From the NCBI RefSeq assembly GCF_044647545.1, contig NZ_CP172818.1: 64,000 nucleotides of DNA; one strand, written 5' to 3'. The first letter of the stretch is position 1; every line of letters starts with the position of its first letter. Position numbers and translations under genes: made by a program. The notes beneath the pieces were generated by a model. It did no database searches, was not told the origin of the DNA, and was given only the letters and a program-made list of their open reading frames with translations. Positions 8,976 through 63,438 of the stretch are shown here, one piece after another. Source of the DNA: Escherichia coli. Lineage in GTDB: Bacteria; Pseudomonadota; Gammaproteobacteria; Enterobacterales; Enterobacteriaceae.

Positions 8976-9733
8976 AAATGAATCTCCGCACTTAAAGGGG
9001 CATGATCAGAAAGGTGTCGCCATGTCCGCAGCGGCAACGCGGTTGGCGCGCTGGCGCTGGCATTTTTGACGTAGATCCTGTCCAGTCGTAGTAGAGGAAA
9101 TTGCACCGGAAACGTGCGCGCCGGGCGTCCGTGGGCGCGGGTAAAAATCTCATCCAGTCCGGCCTGCACTTTTAACGGATGATTAGCTTTTTGCCGCCAG
9201 TCATTGAAATCACCCGCCACCAATACCGGTTCGCCGTCCGGTAGCTCATTCACCCATTCGGCGAGCATCGCAAGCTGCGCCTGACGGTGCGCCTCACGCA
9301 GGCCCAGATGTACGCACATCACATGAATCGCTTTCCCGGTCATCGGCGGCACAATGCGGCAGTAGAGCACGCCGCGCTTTTCCGCACCATCGACCGAAAC
9401 ATCACGATTCTCATAATGTTCAATGGGATAACGTGAAAGAACCGCATTACCGTGATGTCCTTCCGGGTATACGGCATTGCGACCGTAGGCGAAATCGCTC
9501 CACATGGTGTCGGCGAGAAACTCGTAGTGCGAGGTATCGGGCCAGTTTTCCACATGCAGCGGATGAACTTCGTGCGCGCCCATCACTTCCTGCAGGCAAA
9601 CAATATCGGCACTGACGGTACGCACGGCGTCGCGAAGTTCCGGCAAAATGAAGCGTCGGTTAAACGCGGTAAAGCCTTTGTGAATATTGATGGTGAGCAC
9701 CTTGAACGAAAATTGTTGTGTTTGATCGGGCAT
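8972..9733 (-). CDS. ybhP: Endonuclease/exonuclease/phosphatase family protein
   Basis: 253 aa ORF, first gene of the ybhP-clsB-ybhN operon. Confidence 0.9.
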
Positions 9734-20482: not shown

Positions 20483-21445
<963 letters not shown>

Positions 21446-21451
21446 TTCTTT

Positions 21452-22671
<1,220 letters not shown>

Positions 22672-22677
22672 AAAAAA

Positions 22678-22699
22678 GCCCGTCCAGTGGCGGACGGGC
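22678..22699 (-). terminator. Stem-loop between convergent hcxB and ybiJ
   Basis: gcccgtcc-agtgg-cggacgggc hairpin; the U-run lies on the minus-strand side. Confidence 0.55.
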
Positions 22700-22809
22700 A
22701 AACAAGGGTAACATAGGATCAATGAGGGTTAGAGCATATGCGTCTGTCGGCAAACAGACAGGGAAATACTTGTGCTGAACGTAGCGTAACCGCCTGATTA
22801 GCATACGAA

Positions 22810-23070
22810 TTACTTATAAATTACCGCAGTACCGCTTAATTTATTGTTGTTGGTGGCAGAAGTGATGCTGTATCCACTGGCACCGGCCGCCGCGGCTTTC
22901 TCAGCCAGTTTCGCTTCCAGGGCATCGAGGGTGGATGCGCCATCGGCAGAAACCACGCCGATTTTATTCATGTTCTGTGCCTGGGATGCCGTTACCGGTT
23001 CCGCCGCGAACACGCCAAATGACAGAGTTGAAAGAGCCATAGCAGCAACAACAGTATTGATAGTTTTCAT
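22810..23070 (-). CDS. ybiJ: DUF1471 (YhcN-family) small periplasmic protein
   Basis: 86 aa with signal peptide, ends GTAVIYK; paralog of mcbA. Confidence 0.9.
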   Translation of the reverse strand: MKTINTVVAAMALSTLSFGVFAAEPVTASQAQNMNKIGVVSADGASTLDALEAKLAEKAAAAGASGYSITSATNNNKLSGTAVIYK

Positions 23071-23334
23071 AATTAATCTCTCGCAGGTGATTTTTGTATA
23101 AGTGACGTTGTTTCGTCGATGTGATGAGTATCACGTTTTTTTACGAGAGATAAAATCGAAGAGAATTGACCGCCTTGTTCAAATAAATTGATTGATATCT
23201 AACATACTGATAAACCATTTATTTGTTGTACTTATGGACTTGTTTTATACCGCGTGGCAGTCACGGTAGCGTTAAAGGCACGGAATGCCACGCAAAATAC
23301 AAATTATACTCGCTATACATCCCGCCAGTTGTAG

Positions 23335-23601
23335 TTAACGTAACTGGCTGTCTTTCGAACCTCTGCGATTATATCCTGTATAAGCTGGTTTTTGTAAATC
23401 TTTCTCCTGCTGACAATGAATGCATAAGCGCACGCCAGGAATGGCTTCCCGACGGGCCTGCGGGATAGGGGCACCGCACTCTTCACATTCATACAGGCTT
23501 TCGCCATGCGGAATTTCACCCCGAGCGCGGGCAATCGCATCTTCAATTGTACTGTTGATCTGTTCGTTGACGGCGTCATCATTAGCCCAACCGGATGCCA
23601 T
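23335..23601 (-). CDS. ybiI: DksA/TraR-type C4 zinc-finger protein
   Basis: 88 aa with CxxC...CxxC (CEECGAPI...CIHCQ). Confidence 0.9.
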   Translation of the reverse strand: MASGWANDDAVNEQINSTIEDAIARARGEIPHGESLYECEECGAPIPQARREAIPGVRLCIHCQQEKDLQKPAYTGYNRRGSKDSQLR

Positions 23602-23674
23602 ATCGTCCTCCCCATATCAATGCTTGTACAGCTAAGTGTAGCTAATATAGGGACGAACTCGGGCAGTTCAAGCG

Positions 23675-24352
23675 TCAGATCTCCGACCATTCCCGCAGCA
23701 GATTATGATAAAGATTGAGCAGCGACAGGATCTCTTCACTTTCGCCATGGCGGCTTTTCAGCGACTGAATATTGGTGTCCAGTTCGAACAGCATGGCGCG
23801 CTTTTTATCATCGCGGATCATCGACTGGATCCACATAAATGATGCCACCCGTACGCCACGGGTTACGGGTGTCACGCAGTGCAGGCTGCTGGAAGGGTAC
23901 AACACCAGATCGCCTGCCGGGAGTTTTACCCGATGTTGCCCGAAGGTGTCATTAACGACCAGTTCGCCGCCGTCGTAGCTTTCTGGATCGCTTAAAAACA
24001 GCGTGGCAGAAAGGTCAGTGCGCATCCAGCCGTTTTGTGGATGGCTGCGTACTGCGCCATCCACATGGAAACCATAGGTTTCATTGTTCTGATAGCGATT
24101 AAACAGCGGCGTGGAAAGGGTACGCGGCAAGGCCGCGGCAAAGAACAAAGCATGTTGATTAACCGCGTTCAGCACCTCATTTTGCAGGGCGGCGTATAAC
24201 GTGCTGCGGGTGTCTACCTGTTGATTGTTCTTAACTTGCGCACCTTGTGCGCCGGTGGTGACGCGTCCATCCACCCATTCGGCTTGTTCCAGTTGTTCGC
24301 GAAACCGGGCGACGTCCTTTGGCGATAGCACGCCGGGAATGTGGTACATCAT
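23675..24352 (-). CDS. ybiX: PKHD-type Fe(II)/2-oxoglutarate-dependent hydroxylase
   Basis: 225 aa from internal Met (MMYHIPGVL...); directly downstream of fiu. Confidence 0.85.
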
Positions 24353-24393
24353 ACAAGTTCTCCAAAAAATGGGGCCTGCGCCCCACATCTGAA

Positions 24394-26676
24394 TCAGAAA
24401 TGCATATTGGCCGTGAGCAAGAAGGTTCTTGGCTCGCCCGGGTGATAACGGTAGCCGCTCTTGTTGATTGAGGCGACGTAATCGGTATCAAACAGGTTGT
24501 AGACGTTTAGCTGGAAGTCGAGATTGCGATTAACCCGATACCCCAGTTTAGCGTCGGCGACCCAATAACCTTCGGTAAACGCTGGCGTTCCCACCGCGCC
24601 GTCAGAACCTTTATGCATACTGCCGATATACCGTGCGCCCGCACCAACGGAAATATCATCGGTTGCCTGATATTGGCTCCATAAGGTAAAGGCGTGCTCC
24701 GGCGTATAGGGCAGCGATGAGGAACCATCTTGGGCAACATCTTTGCCGTTTTTGATGGTTGCTTTTTGCTGGGTATAGCCGCCAATCACCTGCCACGCGG
24801 GAGTGATATTCCCGGCCACGGATATCTCATAGCCTTCGACGCGTTTCTTACCGTATTGCGAGTAAGTTCCGTCATCATTTTGCTCAACTTCATTTTCGAT
24901 ATCAGTACGGAACAGCGCGGCGGTGAGCAACAGGCGTTTATCCAGAACCTGCCATTTGGTGCCAATCTCGCTGGTGTTGGCTTTTTGCGGTTTAAAATCG
25001 GTGCGGTTGGCACTGTTACCGCTGCCAGACTGCGCAAGGGCGAAGTTGTTGCCGCCCGGCGGCTGCTGGGAAACGGCATAGTTAATATAGACATTGCCGT
25101 TTTCCGTCAGGTGATACAGCGCCCCGGCTTTCCAGTTCACCAGATTGCCCGACTTGGCGGTATCGACGGTGGTGACCGGAGAACCTTTTGCCACGCCAGC
25201 AGGGCAGGTGATGGCACCGCGTCCGCTGCCGCCGCAGGCGGTGGCACTGTCATATTCAGTATGATAATTATCCAGACGGATCCCGCCGTTCAGCTCAAAA
25301 TCACGGGTGATTTGCAGCGTATCGAAGGCGTAAATTGCGAAGGTATCCGTCTGACCATTGGCGTTTGCGCCGTTGCGCGTCAGGCCGCCGGGATGAATGC
25401 TGCTGTCAGGATGATAAATATTTACCGCAGGTAACGTCACCGGATTAACGCCGTAGTTAGTCTGCGTTTCACGGGTAAATTCCACGCCGGTACTGACATC
25501 ATGACCGATAGAACCGGTATAGAACGTCGAGGTCAGGTTGGTCTGGTTGGTGAGAATTTTATTACTCACATCTTTAGTATTCGCCGTGCGTGACCAGGTC
25601 CAGCTATTCACATCGCTGGTGGGCTGGGTAATATTCGACGCCCCGCCCATAATCGCCGTCATCAGGTAATCCTGCTTCACGCGCGACCAACGGGTAGTAT
25701 TGCGAATGGTGGTGTTATCGTTGATGTCGTGCTCAAAACGCATGGTAGCGGTGTCGGTGGTCGAATCGTCGTAATCGGAATCCGTGCCGTAAAAGTTATG
25801 CGTATCAACTTTTCCGGAATGATTCAGGGCCGCCGTTCCCGCAGATGGGGCAGAATAACCCGGTAAACCGATGGTCGGAATGCCGCCGTCTGGCGTGTTG
25901 TGCTGGGTGACATGCAGATAATTAAGATACAAACGATTCGCTGTACCAAGGCCAAAAGCGACAGAAGGGGCGACGCCGTAACGCTCATTTTTGACTTTGT
26001 CGCGTCCGGCATCGTGCGTTTTTTCGCCCATCACGTTCAGGCGCACCGCAGTGGTATCACCAATGACCTGATTGACGTCCAGCGTGCCGCGGCGGAACCA
26101 GGCGCTGCCAATACTCGCGGAGGCGTCAATGCCCGAATCATTGCGCGGCTGCTTGCTGATCATATTGATCGAGCCCGTCGGCGCGCTGCGCCCGTAGTCG
26201 GTGCCGGACGGCCCTTTAATTACTTCGACCTGCTCGGTATTGAAGGTGTCGCGCGAGACGCTGCCGATATCGCGAATGCCATCAATATAAATACTGTTAG
26301 AAGTATCGGCACCGCGCATATAAATGGCGTCGCCAGTGGTGGAGTTACCGTTCTCACCCGCAAAAAACGCACCCACGCCGGGGACGTTTTTGAGCGCGTC
26401 GGTAAGGTTGGTTGCGCCCTGATCTTTAATCACTTGTTCAGAAATCACCGTCATCGTGCGGGTAGTATCCGCTACCGGACGCGAGAATTTCGGATCGGCA
26501 GATTGTTGTGGCGCATAAAGCGAAGGCGTTGATGCTTCGACAACCAGCGTGTCATCCGCGTTAGTTTGCCCTTCGGCGGCGAGAGCCTGAGCCACAGGCG
26601 TGATGCCAATACAAAGACCGGCAAAGAACGTGAGCGAATGAAATTGTCTGGCAGGGAAATTGCGATTGTTTTCCAT
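24394..26676 (-). CDS. fiu: TonB-dependent catecholate siderophore receptor
   Basis: 760 aa ORF with signal peptide and C-terminal aromatic residue (ends ...ANMHF). Confidence 0.95.
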
Positions 26677-26780
26677 TTTGCAGGTGACTTTTTCTTATAT
26701 GTTGAAATTTTCACTGCCACGAGAAAGCATCTCTGCGGATGCGATGCCACTGTTAATCTCGTGATAGCGTTCGTGCAAGT

Positions 26781-26806
26781 GATAATAATTTTGATAAGCA
26801 TTATCA
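26781..26806 (-). promoter_or_regulatory. Fur box in the fiu promoter
   Basis: gataataattttgataagcattatca, close to the GATAATGATAATCATTATC consensus, about 100 nt upstream of the fiu start. Confidence 0.75.
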
Positions 26807-26940
26807 CTTAGCGCGATTTTCTATCACCCATTGCGCGAAAAAGAAATACATTTATTTACATTGCGTTCATATTTGATGTTTTTTGCTTACAAATCGGACG
26901 AAAACTGCATCCAGAGGCGAATGCAGTTACGTTGGTGGGG

Positions 26941-27201
26941 TTATTTGTAGATGATTGCAGTACCGAACATCTGGTCATTTCCGCCTGCGGAATTAATGAC
27001 ATAACCTTTCGCGCCTTGTTCGCGCGCTTTTTCTGCCAGTTTATCCTCCAGATCGCTTAGGTTTGATGCGCCAGTTGCCGAAACGGTACCGGCGGGCCGT
27101 AGCTGACCGCTGTCCAGGTTACTCATCGGTTGCGCGGCATAAGCCGTGAGAGAGATTCCGCTCAGGACGGTGGCAATCAGTAGTGTGAGGCACTTTTTCA
27201 T
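26941..27201 (-). CDS. mcbA: DUF1471 (YhcN-family) periplasmic protein, colanic-acid mucoidy/biofilm regulator
   Basis: 86 aa from internal Met (MKKCLTLLIAT...), ends GTAIIYK. Confidence 0.9.
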   Translation of the reverse strand: MKKCLTLLIATVLSGISLTAYAAQPMSNLDSGQLRPAGTVSATGASNLSDLEDKLAEKAREQGAKGYVINSAGGNDQMFGTAIIYK

Positions 27202-27476
27202 AATGACATCCTCATAAATACAACGGGTAGTGCCTGATAAGTGTAGGTCGCCTGGGCGATGAAAATGACGCAAAAAATTGACAGAGATGTGCTTGTTTTT
27301 TGAACGATATATTTTTACAAAACAAGACAAATCAATGATATGCATAATGCTGACTTTTATGATGAATTGCCATAAACCATAGCCATGTGAAGGTTTATAG
27401 AAATGATAAACGCAGCCAGATATTTACCCTGTCGCGTTATGCGGGTATCTTACGCCGCTGCTTAAAGGAGAATGCT

Positions 27477-28403
27477 ATGTCCGCCCAGAAACCGGGGTTG
27501 CATCCGCGCAACCGTCATCACAGCCGCTACGATCTCGCCACGCTTTGTCAGGTCAATCCTGAACTCAGGCAATTCCTCACGCTTACACCCGCCGGGGAGC
27601 AAAGCGTAGACTTTGCCAATCCGCTGGCGGTGAAGGCGCTCAATAAGGCGTTGCTGGCCCATTTTTACGCCGTAGCGAACTGGGATATCCCCGACGGTTT
27701 TCTCTGCCCACCAGTACCGGGCCGGGCGGATTATATTCATCACCTTGCCGATTTACTGGCAGAAGCAACAGGATCAATTCCAGCTAATGCCAGCATTCTG
27801 GATATCGGCGTTGGTGCGAACTGTATTTATCCGCTGATTGGCGTACATGAATATGGCTGGCGTTTTACTGGTAGTGAAACCAGCAGCCAGGCGTTAAGCA
27901 GTGCGCAGGCGATCATCAGTGCTAATCCGGGGCTTAACCGCGCCATTCGTCTGCGTCGGCAAAAAGAGAGTGGGGCGATTTTTAACGGCATCATCCATAA
28001 AAACGAGCAATACGACGCGACCTTGTGTAACCCGCCATTCCACGATTCCGCCGCTGCGGCACGGGCAGGTAGTGAACGTAAACGCCGTAACCTGGGGCTA
28101 AACAAAGACGATGCACTGAATTTTGGTGGTCAGCAACAGGAGTTGTGGTGTGAAGGCGGTGAAGTCGCTTTTATTAAAAAGATGATTGAAGAGAGCAAAG
28201 GCTTCGCGAAGCAGGTGATGTGGTTTACCTCGCTGGTATCTCGTGGTGAAAACTTACCGCCGTTGTATCGTGCCCTGACGGACGTGGGCGCGGTGAAGGT
28301 GGTTAAAAAAGAGATGGCCCAGGGGCAAAAGCAGAGTCGCTTTATTGCCTGGACCTTTATGAACGACGAGCAGCGCCGCCGTTTTGTCAATCGCCAGCGT
28401 TAA
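27477..28403 (+). CDS. rlmF: 23S rRNA (adenine1618-N6)-methyltransferase
   Basis: 308 aa from internal Met ([12 protein letters not shown]...); NPPF motif. Confidence 0.9.
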
Positions 28404-30625
28404 AGCGTTGGTTCCCCCGGCGGCAACGGTTCAGCCGGGGTCGCGCCCGGAGCAGGCAGCACCTGATAAGTCTGCACTGGCGCGCGAACGCCCGCCAGGT
28501 CGAAATGTTTTTTCACCTGGCTGTCGAGGGCAAAGCGGACCGTCCACTGTTTGAGTGGCAGCGTGGTGAACGAAACACGCAGTGTAAACGCGGTATTGCT
28601 TAAGCCGACAATCCCGGCAAAATTCGGTTCACCAATAATCAGCCCGCGAATTTCTTCGTTTTCCATCAATTCCGCTACCGCATCTTTCAGTGCCTGATTG
28701 GCTTTATCAGCATCTTCATGGCGATCAACATCGTAATTTGCCACCACCGAACCAATGCCGCGGACGAAGTTAGCAAAGGTAGTTATAGAAGACCACGGAA
28801 TGATGTGATACGCCCCGGTATCCTGACGCACGCCCACGGAGCGAATCGACATCCGTTCCACAGTGCCGGTCAACGGCCCGATAGTCACCAAATCTCCAGT
28901 GTTCATACCGTTTTCAAACTGAATAAATACCCCGGTGATAATATCTTTCACCAGCGTTTGCGAACCAAACGAGATAGCCAGACCTAATGCCCCGGCACCT
29001 GCCAGCAATGGCGCGATATTGACGCCGATTTCCGACAACACAATCATGATGGTGATGGTACTGATAATCACCGCCAGCGCGTTACGAAACAGCGTAAGCA
29101 GGGTACGCGTGCGGGCGCTGGGTAGCGGGCGGCCATGAATATCCGAAGCCAGCCGGTTTTCGATCAAACTGGCGAGCACCGTCCAGCCAACCGCCGAGAA
29201 GAAAAGAATGAGTGCGATACGGATCAGGATATCTACGGTTTTCTGCCCCGCACCGTTTTGCAGCCAGTTCCAGAAATCGAACAATCCCCATGCGCTCAAC
29301 AGCAGCATTACCGCCACGCAGACGGTCAGAATACGCGCCGTTTTCAATGCCGCCGAAAGCCAGCCGTTCAGCCGTTTTTGCAGCTCCGGATAATTTCGCT
29401 GAGTATGTGGCGAGAGGGTGATGGTTTTCGCCAGCCAGCGGGAAAACATACCGGAAACAAATGCTGCGATACCAATAATCGCCAGGCTACGCACCGTTGC
29501 ACCCATCATAAATTTCAGGCTGTTGCCCGGATCGAACAACGAAAAGAAAAACAGCACGATAAAATAGGCGCTTGCCAGCCAGTGCCACACCAGCGCAAAG
29601 GCGCGGATAAACAGGCTGAAAAAGGCCAGCGAATGCTCCGCGAAGTTGAGCAAATGCTGGGTAATCTCTTTTTTATTACGAAAGATCAGGTACAGCGCCC
29701 AGACCGTCATGCACAGCATAATGATGACGTTCGCCAGCGCACCTATCTGTACATTCACCTGATTAGAGATAATCGGCACAGCCACAATCAGACCATAGCC
29801 AATCAGGCTGCTTAACCAGCTCAGGCGACGACTCCAGTAACGGGCGGTCTCGTCATGAATCGTGAACGGGCGCAGTTCAGCCACGTTTGGGCAAAAAATC
29901 AGGCGTAGTACGGCTTTGAAAAATTCAATCAGGGCAAAGGCGTTGAGAAACAAACTTTGTTGGAAAGCGATGGTGCGACTGCCCGCATTCAGGTTGTCGC
30001 TTAAAACCTGACCGACAAATAATGTCAGTGCCAGTAACAGCAGGTCGATAATAAACGCCCCGATAATCATCGCCGGAAGCTGCAACCAGTTACTGCGCTC
30101 ACGATTTTTTTGCCGCGCCCACTGGCCCATTTTGCGATACAGCGGAAGTGCGCACAGGCGAATCAGCCAGTAAAAACCAAACACTAATACCGCTAACATT
30201 GAAAAATGGGTCAACGCATTGCTGAAGGTTTGTGGATTAAACGGCTTATGCGGGGAGCCGGTGATATTGCGATAAAGTTGCCCGAAGCGGGCGGAAAGGG
30301 CTTCACCATAATGGCGGCTGACTTCGGTGACCTTTTGCAGCACGGTTTGCTCTTCAACCAGCGTCGGCGGCACGATCTTCGGTACGGGTTCTGCCGGGGG
30401 CGTCGCGGCGACGGTGCGCAACTGGTCGATCAACTCTTTACGCGAGGTGTCATTATCCAGCACATCCGCCAGTGCGCCATAGGCCGCTTTTTTTTGTTCG
30501 ATATCCGGTTCCGGGGCCGGTTCAGTCGTTGAGTCCGTTGTCGTTGTGGTTGTAACGCCGGGTATGGATACCGCGTGGGCAGGTGCGCCCAGCAGGCAGA
30601 AGAGGATGAACAGGATCCACCGCAT
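28400..30625 (-). CDS. ybiO: MscS-family mechanosensitive channel with large periplasmic N-terminal domain
   Basis: 741 aa from internal Met (MRWILFILF...) with signal peptide; MscS-like C-terminal core. Confidence 0.9.
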
Positions 30626-61089: not shown

Positions 61090-63438
61090 ATGCTGAGTTT
61101 ATACGAAAAGATAAAGATAAGGCTGATAATTTTATTTTTATTGGCAGCACTGTCATTTATTGGTCTTTTTTTCATCATTAACTATCAACTGGTATCGGAA
61201 CGCGCGGTAAAACGTGCCGATAGCCGCTTTGAACTTATTCAGAAAAACGTTGGCTATTTCTTTAAAGATATTGAACGTTCGGCCCTGACATTAAAGGACT
61301 CACTGTATTTATTAAAAAATACAGAGGAGATTCAACGCGCCGTAATTCTGAAAATGGAAATGATGCCATTTTTAGACTCGGTGGGACTGGTACTTGATGA
61401 TAATAAATATTATCTCTTTTCGCGGAGGGCGAATGATAAAATCGTTGTTTATCATCAGGAACAAGTAAATGGACCGCTTGTCGACGAGTCAGGGCGGGTT
61501 ATTTTTGCCGATTTTAACCCATCGAAACGACCGTGGTCGGTGGCTTCAGATGACTCTAACAACAGCTGGAATCCGGCATACAATTGCTTTGATCGTCCGG
61601 GTAAAAAATGTATCTCTTTTACGCTACACATCAACGGCAAAGATCACGATTTGTTAGCGGTGGATAAAATTCATGTCGATTTAAACTGGCGATATCTGAA
61701 CGAGTATCTTGATCAAATCAGCGCTAATGATGAAGTTCTATTTTTAAAGCAAGGTCATGAGATCATTGCTAAGAATCAACTCGCTCGTGAAAAATTGATT
61801 ATTTATAATAGCGAAGGTAATTATAATATTATTGATTCTGTCGATACGGAATATATTGAAAAAACATCAGCGGTGCCAAACAACGCATTATTCGAAATCT
61901 ATTTTTATTATCCTGGTGGTAATTTATTGAACGCATCAGATAAACTTTTTTATCTGCCGTTTGCTTTCATTATTATCGTATTGCTGGTGGTTTATTTAAT
62001 GACCACTCGAGTTTTCCGTCGGCAATTTTCTGAAATGACCGAACTGGTTAATACGCTGGCGTTTTTGCCTGACTCTACGGATCAAATCGAGGCCCTGAAG
62101 ATTCGTGAAGGCGATGCGAAAGAGATTATCAGTATCAAAAATTCGATCGCGGAAATGAAAGATGCTGAAATTGAACGGGCAAATAAATTGCTCTCGCTGA
62201 TCTCTTACGATCAGGAAAGCGGTTTTATTAAAAATATGGCGATTATTGAGTCCAACAATAATCAGTATCTGGCTGTGGGGATCATCAAACTGTGTGGTCT
62301 GGAAGCTGTGGAAGCGGTGTTTGGTGTTGATGAACGCAATAAAATCGTCAGGAAATTGTGTCAGCGAATTGCCGAGAAATATGCGCAATGCTGCGATATC
62401 GTGACATTTAATGCCGATCTCTATTTACTCCTGTGCCGGGAAAATGTACAGACGTTTACCCGTAAGATAGCGACGGTAAACGATTTTGACAGCAGTTTTG
62501 GCTACCGCAATCTGCGCATCCATAAGTCTGCTATTTGTGAACCTTTGCAGGGGGAAAACGCCTGGAGTTACGCAGAAAAGCTGAAACTGGCGATTTCCAG
62601 TATCCGCAACCATATGTTCTCAGAGTTTATTTTCTGTGATGATGCGAAACTCAACGAAATAGAAGAGAATATCTGGATTGCGCGTAATATTCGCCATGCA
62701 ATGGAAATTGGCGAACTATTCCTCGTCTATCAACCGATCGTTGATATTAACACCCGCGCCATTCTGGGCGCGGAGGCGTTGTGCCGTTGGGTGTCTGCGG
62801 AGCGGGGGATCATTTCACCGCTAAAGTTCATTACCATTGCTGAAGATATCGGGTTTATCAATGAGCTGGGTTATCAGATTATTAAAACCGCGATGGGTGA
62901 ATTCAGACATTTTAGTCAGCGTGCGGTCCTGAAGGACGGTTTCTTACTGCATATTAATGTTTCGCCCTGGCAGTTAAACGAACCACACTTTCATGAGCGT
63001 TTTACCACCATCATGGAAGAAAATGGCCTGAAGGCGAACAGCCTCTGTGTTGAGATCACTGAAACCGTGATTGAGCGAATTAATGAACATTTTTATCTCA
63101 ATATTGAACAACTGCGTAAACAAGGGGTACGGATATCGATTGATGACTTTGGCACCGGTTTGTCAAACCTGAAACGTTTTTATGAAATTAATCCAGATAG
63201 CATAAAAGTGGACTCACAATTTACCGGCGATATTTTCGGTACTGCGGGAAAAATTGTGCGCATTATTTTCGATCTGGCACGCTATAACCGGATCCCGGTG
63301 ATTGCGGAAGGCGTAGAGAGCGAAGACGTTGCGCGCGAATTAATCAAATTAGGATGTGTTCAGGCTCAGGGGTATCTGTACCAGAAACCCATGCCGTTCT
63401 CCGCCTGGGATAAAAGTGGAAAATTAGTAAAAGAGTAG
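61090..63438 (+). CDS. pdeI: c-di-GMP phosphodiesterase (membrane-anchored, EAL domain)
   Basis: 782 aa (yliE); N-terminal TM segment and periplasmic region; EAL-domain motifs in the C-terminal third. Confidence 0.9.

Follow-up and report, generated by a model that had tools for sequence, protein, structure and literature searches.

The small, probably exported proteins YbiJ and McbA of Escherichia coli are encoded on one strand, on either side of three other genes, fiu, ybiX and ybiI. We examined this locus in a stretch of 64,000 nt of E. coli DNA (contig NZ_CP172818.1), hereafter the window, to which all coordinates refer unless a locus number (L) precedes them. We consider it likely that ybiJ and mcbA are an ancient tandem pair, which was later split by ybiI and by a portable module consisting of fiu and ybiX, and that the bracketing of the iron-regulated genes is a historical by-product. 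The genes concerned are listed here; Pfam and NCBIfam were consistent with every gene name at the ybiJ-mcbA locus.

22810–23070, minus strand: ybiJ, 86-aa DUF1471 periplasmic protein (open reading frame [ORF]; PF07338, 64.8 bits; NF007611, 173 bits; RefSeq).
23335–23601, minus strand: ybiI, 88-aa DksA/TraR-type C4 zinc-finger protein (PF01258; NF008243, 160.6 bits).
23675–24352, minus strand: ybiX, 225-aa 2-oxoglutarate/Fe(II) PKHD-type hydroxylase (PF13640 and PF18331; NF003972, 514 bits).
24394–26676, minus strand: fiu, 760-aa TonB-dependent catecholate siderophore receptor with plug and beta-barrel domains (NF007349, 1508 bits; RefSeq).
26941–27201, minus strand: mcbA (ybiM), 86-aa DUF1471 periplasmic protein (PF07338, 70.6 bits; NF040473, 172 bits).
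From 27477, plus strand: rlmF (RefSeq annotation); the next gene is ybiO on the minus strand.

YbiJ and McbA are true DUF1471 paralogs. BLASTP aligned the two translations without a gap from end to end, with 40 of 86 residues identical (47%) and an E value of 3e-23, which is far beyond chance. The annotated McbA start at 27201 lies within a longer mechanical ORF of 134 aa. Both proteins share the blocks LEAKLAEKA/LEDKLAEKA and the C-terminal GTAVIYK/GTAIIYK, and both exceeded the gathering score of PF07338 (27 bits), their residues 34–86 falling on profile positions 1–55 of 55. At a cut-off of 110 bits the NCBIfam models tell them apart: the YbiJ model NF007611 (equivalog) gave 76 bits for McbA, and the McbA model NF040473 (exception model) gave 81 bits for YbiJ. 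By eye, both N-termini consist of MK(T/K), a hydrophobic stretch and A-x-A before residue 23 (VFA|AE and AYA|AQ), and the RefSeq product name is 'periplasmic protein McbA'. An earlier note on this sequence had described the lengths, the shared blocks and the placement of the two genes around iron-regulated genes, and all of this was borne out by the alignment, by PF07338 and NCBIfam, and by the Fur-1 iModulon (PMC10164565).

The same note had taken the motifs as marks of a specific duplication that is visible directly in the sequence, and here the data did not follow it. BhsA, whose gene lies at a distance of about 330 kb in K-12, has LEEQLAQKA and GTAVIYK as well, so that the LExKLAxKA and GTAxIYK blocks are signatures of the family and not private marks of this pair. 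Third codon positions of ybiJ and mcbA are saturated, with 27% identity. In a repeat search the only DNA matches between the genes were 59 nt at 71% and 25 nt at 76%, in register and 4131 nt apart; these are the two protein motif blocks within the coding sequence. Blastn of both genes with their flanks revealed no similarity outside the coding regions, and we therefore reject a recent duplication or a repeat-mediated rearrangement. The low third-position identity and the unlike flanks together indicate that the event that made the pair is ancient. For an ancient duplication a lack of residual flank similarity is expected, and it does not exclude one. We conclude that an ancient tandem duplication is plausible, although the cited motifs do not show it.

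To place the pair, we compared gene order upstream of rlmF in 80 species-representative loci anchored on RlmF with 10-kb flanks, onto which the reference proteins were mapped. The following counts are for the 78 Enterobacteriaceae loci, of which the remainder were rearranged or truncated.

ybiJ-ybiI-ybiX-fiu-mcbA, 21 loci: Escherichia, Citrobacter freundii complex, Leclercia, Silvania, Pseudocitrobacter vendiensis and others.
ybiJ-ybiI-mcbA, 19 loci: E. albertii, C. amalonaticus, C. sedlakii, C. werkmanii, Trabulsiella, Yokenella and several Enterobacter.
ybiJ-ybiI, 20 loci: Salmonella, Kosakonia, Phytobacter, Superficieibacter.
ybiJ-mcbA directly in tandem, 5 loci: Atlantibacter, Cedecea and a relative.
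ybiJ-ybiX-fiu, sometimes together with a divergent mcbA-like gene, 4 loci: Kluyvera.
ybiJ-ybiI-ybiX-fiu, 3 loci: Klebsiella oxytoca group.

ybiJ was nearly universal among the sampled Enterobacteriaceae loci. Orthologs of both ybiJ and mcbA occurred on either side of a proxy tree built from RlmF and YbiO, and mcbA was lost several times; its absence from Salmonella agrees with a passage of a published review of the family (PMC4092069). In the tandem loci ybiJ and mcbA lie head to tail on one strand before rlmF with a spacer of about 370–410 nt (L070, L071, L072, L074 and L076). Linkage of the two genes on one strand in loci lacking fiu was found in 24 sampled species, and the linkage is thus independent of the fiu block. 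In 44 of the 78 loci, one or both DUF1471 genes were kept and fiu-ybiX was absent. The earlier note had proposed synteny as a way to see whether the duplication predates the fiu block; the answer from these loci is that the linkage does not depend on that block, and a probable order of events is set out below. That note had also treated fiu-ybiX-ybiI as one block. The survey divides it differently, because fiu-ybiX comes and goes as two genes while ybiI remains beside ybiJ in species without them.

Neighboring DUF1471 paralogs on the same strand are known elsewhere, as yjfN-bsmA (yjfO) in E. coli and Salmonella and as yhcN with a ycfR-like gene in Salmonella; in the K-12 genome we likewise found yjfN and bsmA to be neighbors. 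In passages of the review cited above, adjacent pairs of this kind are taken as evidence that the family grows by tandem duplication, and ybiJ/mcbA is not among the adjacent pairs that these passages list. Unlike yjfN-bsmA, ybiJ and mcbA of E. coli are separated by 3.9 kb and three unrelated genes, and they are adjacent only in Atlantibacter and Cedecea.

Some loci of the survey had features of their own. The mcbA-like gene of Kluyvera (L031 4087–4245, L083 8955–9113) encodes a protein 51% identical to McbA whose N-terminus ends in ...TSTTGC or ...TTTAC(A); judged from these residues, it may carry a lipoprotein-type rather than a Sec signal and belong to a distinct subfamily. In one genome of Trabulsiella odontotermitis, ybiJ (L036 7049–7258) encodes 75 aa with an altered C-terminus, ...GGGATSKPLTLCVD before the stop; a frameshift that turned it into a pseudogene, or an error in the assembly, is the probable cause. 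A conserved gene of about 205 aa (beginning MYFYEPSQGHGLPHDPLNAI...) lies between mcbA or ybiI and rlmF (L046 9291–9905; also L027, L033 and L036) in Kosakonia-like genomes, Phytobacter, Pseudocitrobacter, Trabulsiella and Kluyvera. E. coli lacks this gene, whose product is flavin-reductase-like by appearance only. Pseudescherichia carries an 8-kb island at the ybiI/mcbA junction, the site of fiu-ybiX in E. coli (L055 1398–9460; also L057). By appearance, the ORFs of the island encode a LysR regulator, a Liv-type branched-chain amino-acid ATP-binding cassette (ABC) transporter, an amidohydrolase and a glyoxalase-like protein.

The second part of the evidence concerns fiu and ybiX, which were adjacent in every context examined and with which ybiI does not travel. 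The extent of the module and its regulatory site in the window are as follows.

23692–26897, minus strand: fiu-ybiX module (ybiX, fiu, fiu promoter and Fur box), the segment missing in E. albertii according to blastn of L011 against the window.
26781–26805, no strand assigned: Fur-box array upstream of fiu, two overlapping 19-mers offset by 6 nt that match the consensus at 14/19 and 15/19 positions.

Fiu orthologs with 76–79% identity were found in Pantoea, Rouxiella, Serratia fonticola, Shimwellia, Mangrovibacter and K. pneumoniae. We checked the contexts of all of these except S. fonticola and found five unrelated fiu-ybiX neighborhoods, none of the five with a PF07338 or PF01258 gene nearby. 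In K. pneumoniae, fiu-ybiX is located beside trpCBA and ompW (L090 6001–9045) and Fiu is 77% identical to that of E. coli; in the K. oxytoca group it is located at the rlmF locus and Fiu is 84–85% identical, so that the two Klebsiella groups hold the pair at different chromosomal sites. Fur boxes were scored by the number of matches to a 19-mer consensus, at least 14/19 being counted as a site. By this measure, 28 of 29 syntenic loci and all five non-syntenic ones had a site upstream of fiu, whereas none was present within 250 nt upstream of ybiI, either in module-free loci or in E. coli loci. The Fur box thus moves with fiu. In the window, the array overlaps the -10 element of a promoter-like site of fiu (26800–26827) and is among the best matches of the whole 64 kb, in which no site with at most 3 mismatches to the consensus was found. 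Further 15/19 matches are located at 61396–61414 and 62118–62136.

Losses of the module can be demonstrated in two species. In C. werkmanii, 3.2 kb that its fiu-bearing relatives possess are cleanly deleted (L023 about 9484–9486 against L021 6255–9487). Both C. werkmanii and E. albertii keep 3' codons of ybiX, in C. werkmanii the last seven (HEWSEI and the stop), and this C-terminus of YbiX is conserved in all other contexts examined. The absence of fiu-ybiX from these two species is therefore demonstrably secondary. The ends of these independent deletions are nearly alike, the sequence resuming about 43 nt past the mcbA stop and beyond the mcbA terminator; the E. albertii joint holds an 87-nt filler (L011 9336–9422) that matches nothing in the window. 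A site prone to deletion, or the spread of a single allele through recombination, could account for the like end points. Recombination between the paralogs themselves was considered as a cause of gain and loss and rejected, because ybiJ and mcbA are only 49% identical in nucleotide sequence and the deletion ends lie outside both.

The pairing of fiu with ybiX is also known from the literature. A Fiu/PiuA/CciT receptor and a YbiX/PiuC/CciO dioxygenase are reported to be co-conserved across Proteobacteria (bioRxiv 10.1101/2024.10.16.618771), and fiu and ybiX are adjacent, co-oriented, 41–62 nt apart and Fur-regulated. Unlike that conserved pair, the E. coli copy is flanked by ybiI downstream and by a DUF1471 gene on each side.

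The history that we favor would have begun with a tandem duplication upstream of rlmF, most likely before the radiation of the sampled Enterobacteriaceae, which gave rise to ybiJ and mcbA and whose trace in the DNA would since have been erased. ybiI would then have come between the two genes. In a subset of lineages including Escherichia, fiu-ybiX with its own Fur-box promoter would have been inserted between ybiI and mcbA, to be deleted repeatedly afterwards with similar end points. The order of these events is derived from the module's other sites, from the tandem state in Atlantibacter and Cedecea, and from a weak two-protein tree.

Several observations, some on kinship and some on timing, weigh against this history. 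As for kinship, all ten DUF1471 genes of K-12 were fetched and compared all against all. Over the full length, YbiJ was as similar to BhsA as to McbA (46.5% identity and 71 bits in both cases), so that YbiJ and McbA are not singled out as sisters; McbA-BhsA reached 43% (70 bits) and YbiJ-YhcN 45.5% (63 bits). The NCBIfam model of BhsA outscored the sibling's model for both proteins (116 vs 81 bits for YbiJ, 101 vs 76 bits for McbA). Neighbor-joining (NJ) trees were calculated with 300 bootstraps on 63 columns of the mature domain, from an input to which synteny-defined orthologs and representatives of 50%-identity clusters were added and from which partial or chimeric representatives were dropped. 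In these trees the McbA clade lay nearer the BhsA-like cloud. A YbiJ+McbA clade received 38% of the bootstraps and the two alternatives with BhsA 15% and 17% (the latter for McbA with BhsA); no topology reached 50%, and the branching order of YbiJ, McbA, BhsA and YhcN was not recovered from these columns.

These data would also fit an independent arrival: the dispersed duplication of a bhsA-like gene, or its horizontal transfer, would have placed mcbA next to rlmF, and the nearness of mcbA to ybiJ would be due to chance or to an interval that is prone to insertions. The interval does take up other DNA, as the Pseudescherichia ABC-transporter island and the flavin-reductase-like gene of many genera illustrate. 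We nevertheless regard an independent arrival as unlikely. A slowly evolving BhsA would give the same pattern of profile scores whatever the topology. Within the mature domain YbiJ and McbA are nominally the closest E. coli pair (51% identity, against 44% and 41%), and their clade is the plurality topology of the bootstrap. Moreover, the genes of Atlantibacter and Cedecea stand head to tail on the same strand about 400 nt apart, and DUF1471 is a family in which growth through adjacent copies has been described in the passages mentioned above.

As for timing, the order of an initial tandem pair followed by insertions leans on a midpoint-rooted NJ tree of RlmF and YbiO and takes the tandem state as ancestral. 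A relaxed tblastn search for remnants of ybiI, fiu and mcbA yielded no match that rose above noise in the loci of Atlantibacter, Cedecea, Kluyvera, Salmonella and Klebsiella, a result that cannot distinguish an old deletion from primary absence. Fiu identities also roughly track RlmF identities, and the module could be as old at the rlmF locus as the sampled radiation itself. One may imagine that fiu-ybiX, perhaps with ybiI, was already at the locus when a DUF1471 gene was copied across it, the empty and tandem states being later deletions. The demonstrable deletions in E. albertii and C. werkmanii, and the identical position and orientation of the module in six clades together with the tracking of RlmF by Fiu, would suit such old vertical inheritance with many losses. 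We find this sequence of events improbable, because it requires a non-tandem duplication that jumps about 3.9 kb and three genes. Furthermore, fiu-ybiX occupies unrelated sites without DUF1471 genes in Erwiniaceae, Yersiniaceae, Shimwellia, Mangrovibacter and K. pneumoniae, more than half of the Enterobacteriaceae loci hold DUF1471 genes and no module, and the tandem loci lack detectable remnants of ybiI or fiu. An ancient tandem pair, split later, remains the reading that we prefer.

The regulatory sites of the window bear on whether the bracketing has a function. Those outside the module proper are as follows.

22678–22699, minus strand: intrinsic terminator 3' of ybiJ, a 9-pair stem (7 G-C) followed by eight T, common to the convergent gene hcxB.
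23179–23191, minus strand: YhaJ-type LysR box TCA-N7-TGA in the ybiJ promoter, -120 to -109 from the ATG.
23644–23671, minus strand: promoter-like site of ybiI from a consensus scan, TTGAAC-16-TATATT, directly past the ybiX stop.
24369–24386, minus strand: G+C-rich stem-loop with a T-run between the fiu stop and the ybiX start, a match of the terminator-like scan.
26901–26926, minus strand: mcbA terminator hairpin, CTGCAT-10 nt-ATGCAG followed by TTTT, below the T-run threshold of the terminator scan.
27202–27476, no strand assigned: divergent mcbA/rlmF intergenic region with the mcbA promoter, the published target of repression by McbR/YncC.

In the ybiJ promoter, the mutations C120T and T112C/T111C abolish induction by hydroquinone, and YhaJ binds this promoter in an electrophoretic mobility shift assay (PMC5031710). 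The box at 23179–23191 coincides with the mutated positions. The box is conserved near -120 across the Enterobacteriaceae. An exact TCA-N7-TGA was present at -118 to -136 of ybiJ in 40 of 73 loci, and the other loci inspected had the near-match TCA-N7-AGA. McbR/YncC acts as the repressor of mcbA (Zhang et al. 2008, as quoted in a passage of PMC4092069), and the terminator hairpin was conserved 3' of mcbA in 16 species. fiu is counted in the core Fur regulon, and the Fur-1 iModulon includes it together with ybiX and ybiI (PMC10164565); the scan for sites of at least 14/19 found none near ybiJ, ybiI or mcbA in the window. ybiJ under YhaJ, mcbA under McbR and fiu-ybiX under Fur are thus three separately controlled units in E. 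coli. In the proposed scheme, ybiJ would be transcribed from its YhaJ-dependent promoter, mcbA from its McbR-repressed promoter up to its own terminator, and fiu-ybiX from its Fur-box promoter.

ybiI has a promoter-like site of its own and no Fur box, and its iron response is best explained by read-through from fiu; its Fur dependence probably arises in this way. In species without fiu-ybiX, the ybiI promoter element TTGAC...CATAT comes within 10–20 nt of the mcbA terminator hairpin. The hairpin at 24369–24386, a prediction from sequence, could act as an attenuator of transcription into ybiX and ybiI.

A functional explanation of the bracket would make YbiJ and McbA periplasmic partners, modulators or envelope-stress sensors for catecholate import by Fiu, kept in place by selection. 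All three proteins act in the cell envelope, and mcbA was present in 24 of 29 loci with fiu against 27 of 49 without it (odds ratio 3.9, Fisher p = 0.015, not corrected for phylogeny). That test ignores shared ancestry, however. In many genera both DUF1471 genes are retained in the absence of fiu, and fiu-ybiX is found without them in five contexts; the regulators differ, and neither ybiJ nor mcbA is mentioned in the Fur pan-regulon paper (PMC10164565). We therefore give this explanation very little credence. If the module was inserted into a plastic intergenic site, as we propose, the bracketing would not be a functional unit. It is much more likely that the ybiI/mcbA junction is a recurrent site of gain and loss for the Fur-controlled fiu-ybiX, and that the module brings ybiI under Fur by read-through, than that the flanking genes are functionally tied to Fiu.

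The proteins themselves conform to their family, DUF1471 (YhcN/BhsA/McbA), characterized by Eletsky et al. 2014 (PMC4092069, of which we cite individual passages). YbiJ and McbA show no difference from it: each has 86 aa, a putative N-terminal export signal and a single C-terminal domain of about 55 residues, and they are name-giving E. coli members. No solved structure of either protein was found. The AlphaFold2 (AF2) model of McbA has a strand at 36–45, a helix at 48–61 and strands at 66–73 and 78–85, with a predicted local distance difference test score (pLDDT) of about 90 over residues 34–86 and low values over residues 1–30. The top Foldseek matches of this model in the PDB were 4EVU, 2JNA, 2M2J, 2MA8 and 2NOC, DUF1471 domains of YdgH, SrfN and YahO, which is consistent with the published view of small periplasmic envelope-stress proteins. 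The family is small, with 449 clusters at 50% identity (E <= 0.001) in a profile search of 1.84 billion representatives, a collection without taxonomy; every match with a named source organism was from Enterobacterales. YbiJ and McbA are members of this Enterobacterales-restricted family of small secreted alpha+beta proteins.

The next Foldseek match after the DUF1471 domains was RcsF (2Y1B; probability 1.00, root-mean-square deviation 2.2 Å over 68 columns), the outer-membrane lipoprotein that senses envelope stress for the Rcs system. It shares a small alpha+beta fold with the McbA model at 13% sequence identity, and the likeness has been remarked for YbiJ, of which an AF2 model is published (bioRxiv 10.1101/2025.02.11.637708). 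According to passages of Eletsky et al., YbiJ and McbA lack the lipobox and the redox-active disulfides of RcsF, and overproduction of McbA leads to colanic-acid mucoidy, an output of the Rcs type.

The locus is a regular part of the E. coli chromosome. The 21.5–30.6 kb part of the window matches strain FDAARGOS_497 at 100%, and 5416 of 5426 complete E. coli genomes contain at least 80% of a 4.9-kb query. Beyond ybiJ lies the convergent gene hcxB.

21586–22671, plus strand: hcxB (RefSeq annotation and ORF list).

In the convergent terminator region of hcxB and ybiJ, RefSeq annotates a hypothetical protein of 19 aa (WP_212734157.1, 22737–22796, plus strand), which is predicted only. A search of 21000–29000 with Rfam (E <= 0.1) detected none of its families at the 3' ends of ybiJ and mcbA; an anti-hemB RNA match 3' of ybiJ was a chance sub-threshold hit (22 bits against a gathering score of 49.5), and we propose no RNA element there. 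At the K-12 bhsA locus, the annotated small RNA BhsB overlaps the 3' end of bhsA (L002 3304–3403). The spacers between ybiI and ybiJ (23071–23334) and between mcbA and fiu (26677–26940) are both 264 nt long. Blastn found no similarity between them, and we treat the equal lengths as coincidence for this reason.

Published work already covers the genes, their paralogy, the control by Fur and the pairing of fiu with ybiX, down to the statement that 'YbiJ is a paralog of McbA' (bioRxiv 10.1101/2025.02.11.637708). Because genes, kinship and iron regulation are known, the finding is an ordinary one. ybiJ and mcbA are named and annotated genes of E. coli K-12, and the result has little significance beyond bookkeeping and raises no new mechanistic question. 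Its modest addition is the picture of a portable Fur-box-fiu-ybiX unit within an old DUF1471 pair, deleted twice and located elsewhere in K. pneumoniae. This comparative picture may help in tracking Fiu as an entry route of cefiderocol, or in the annotation of Enterobacteriaceae genomes.

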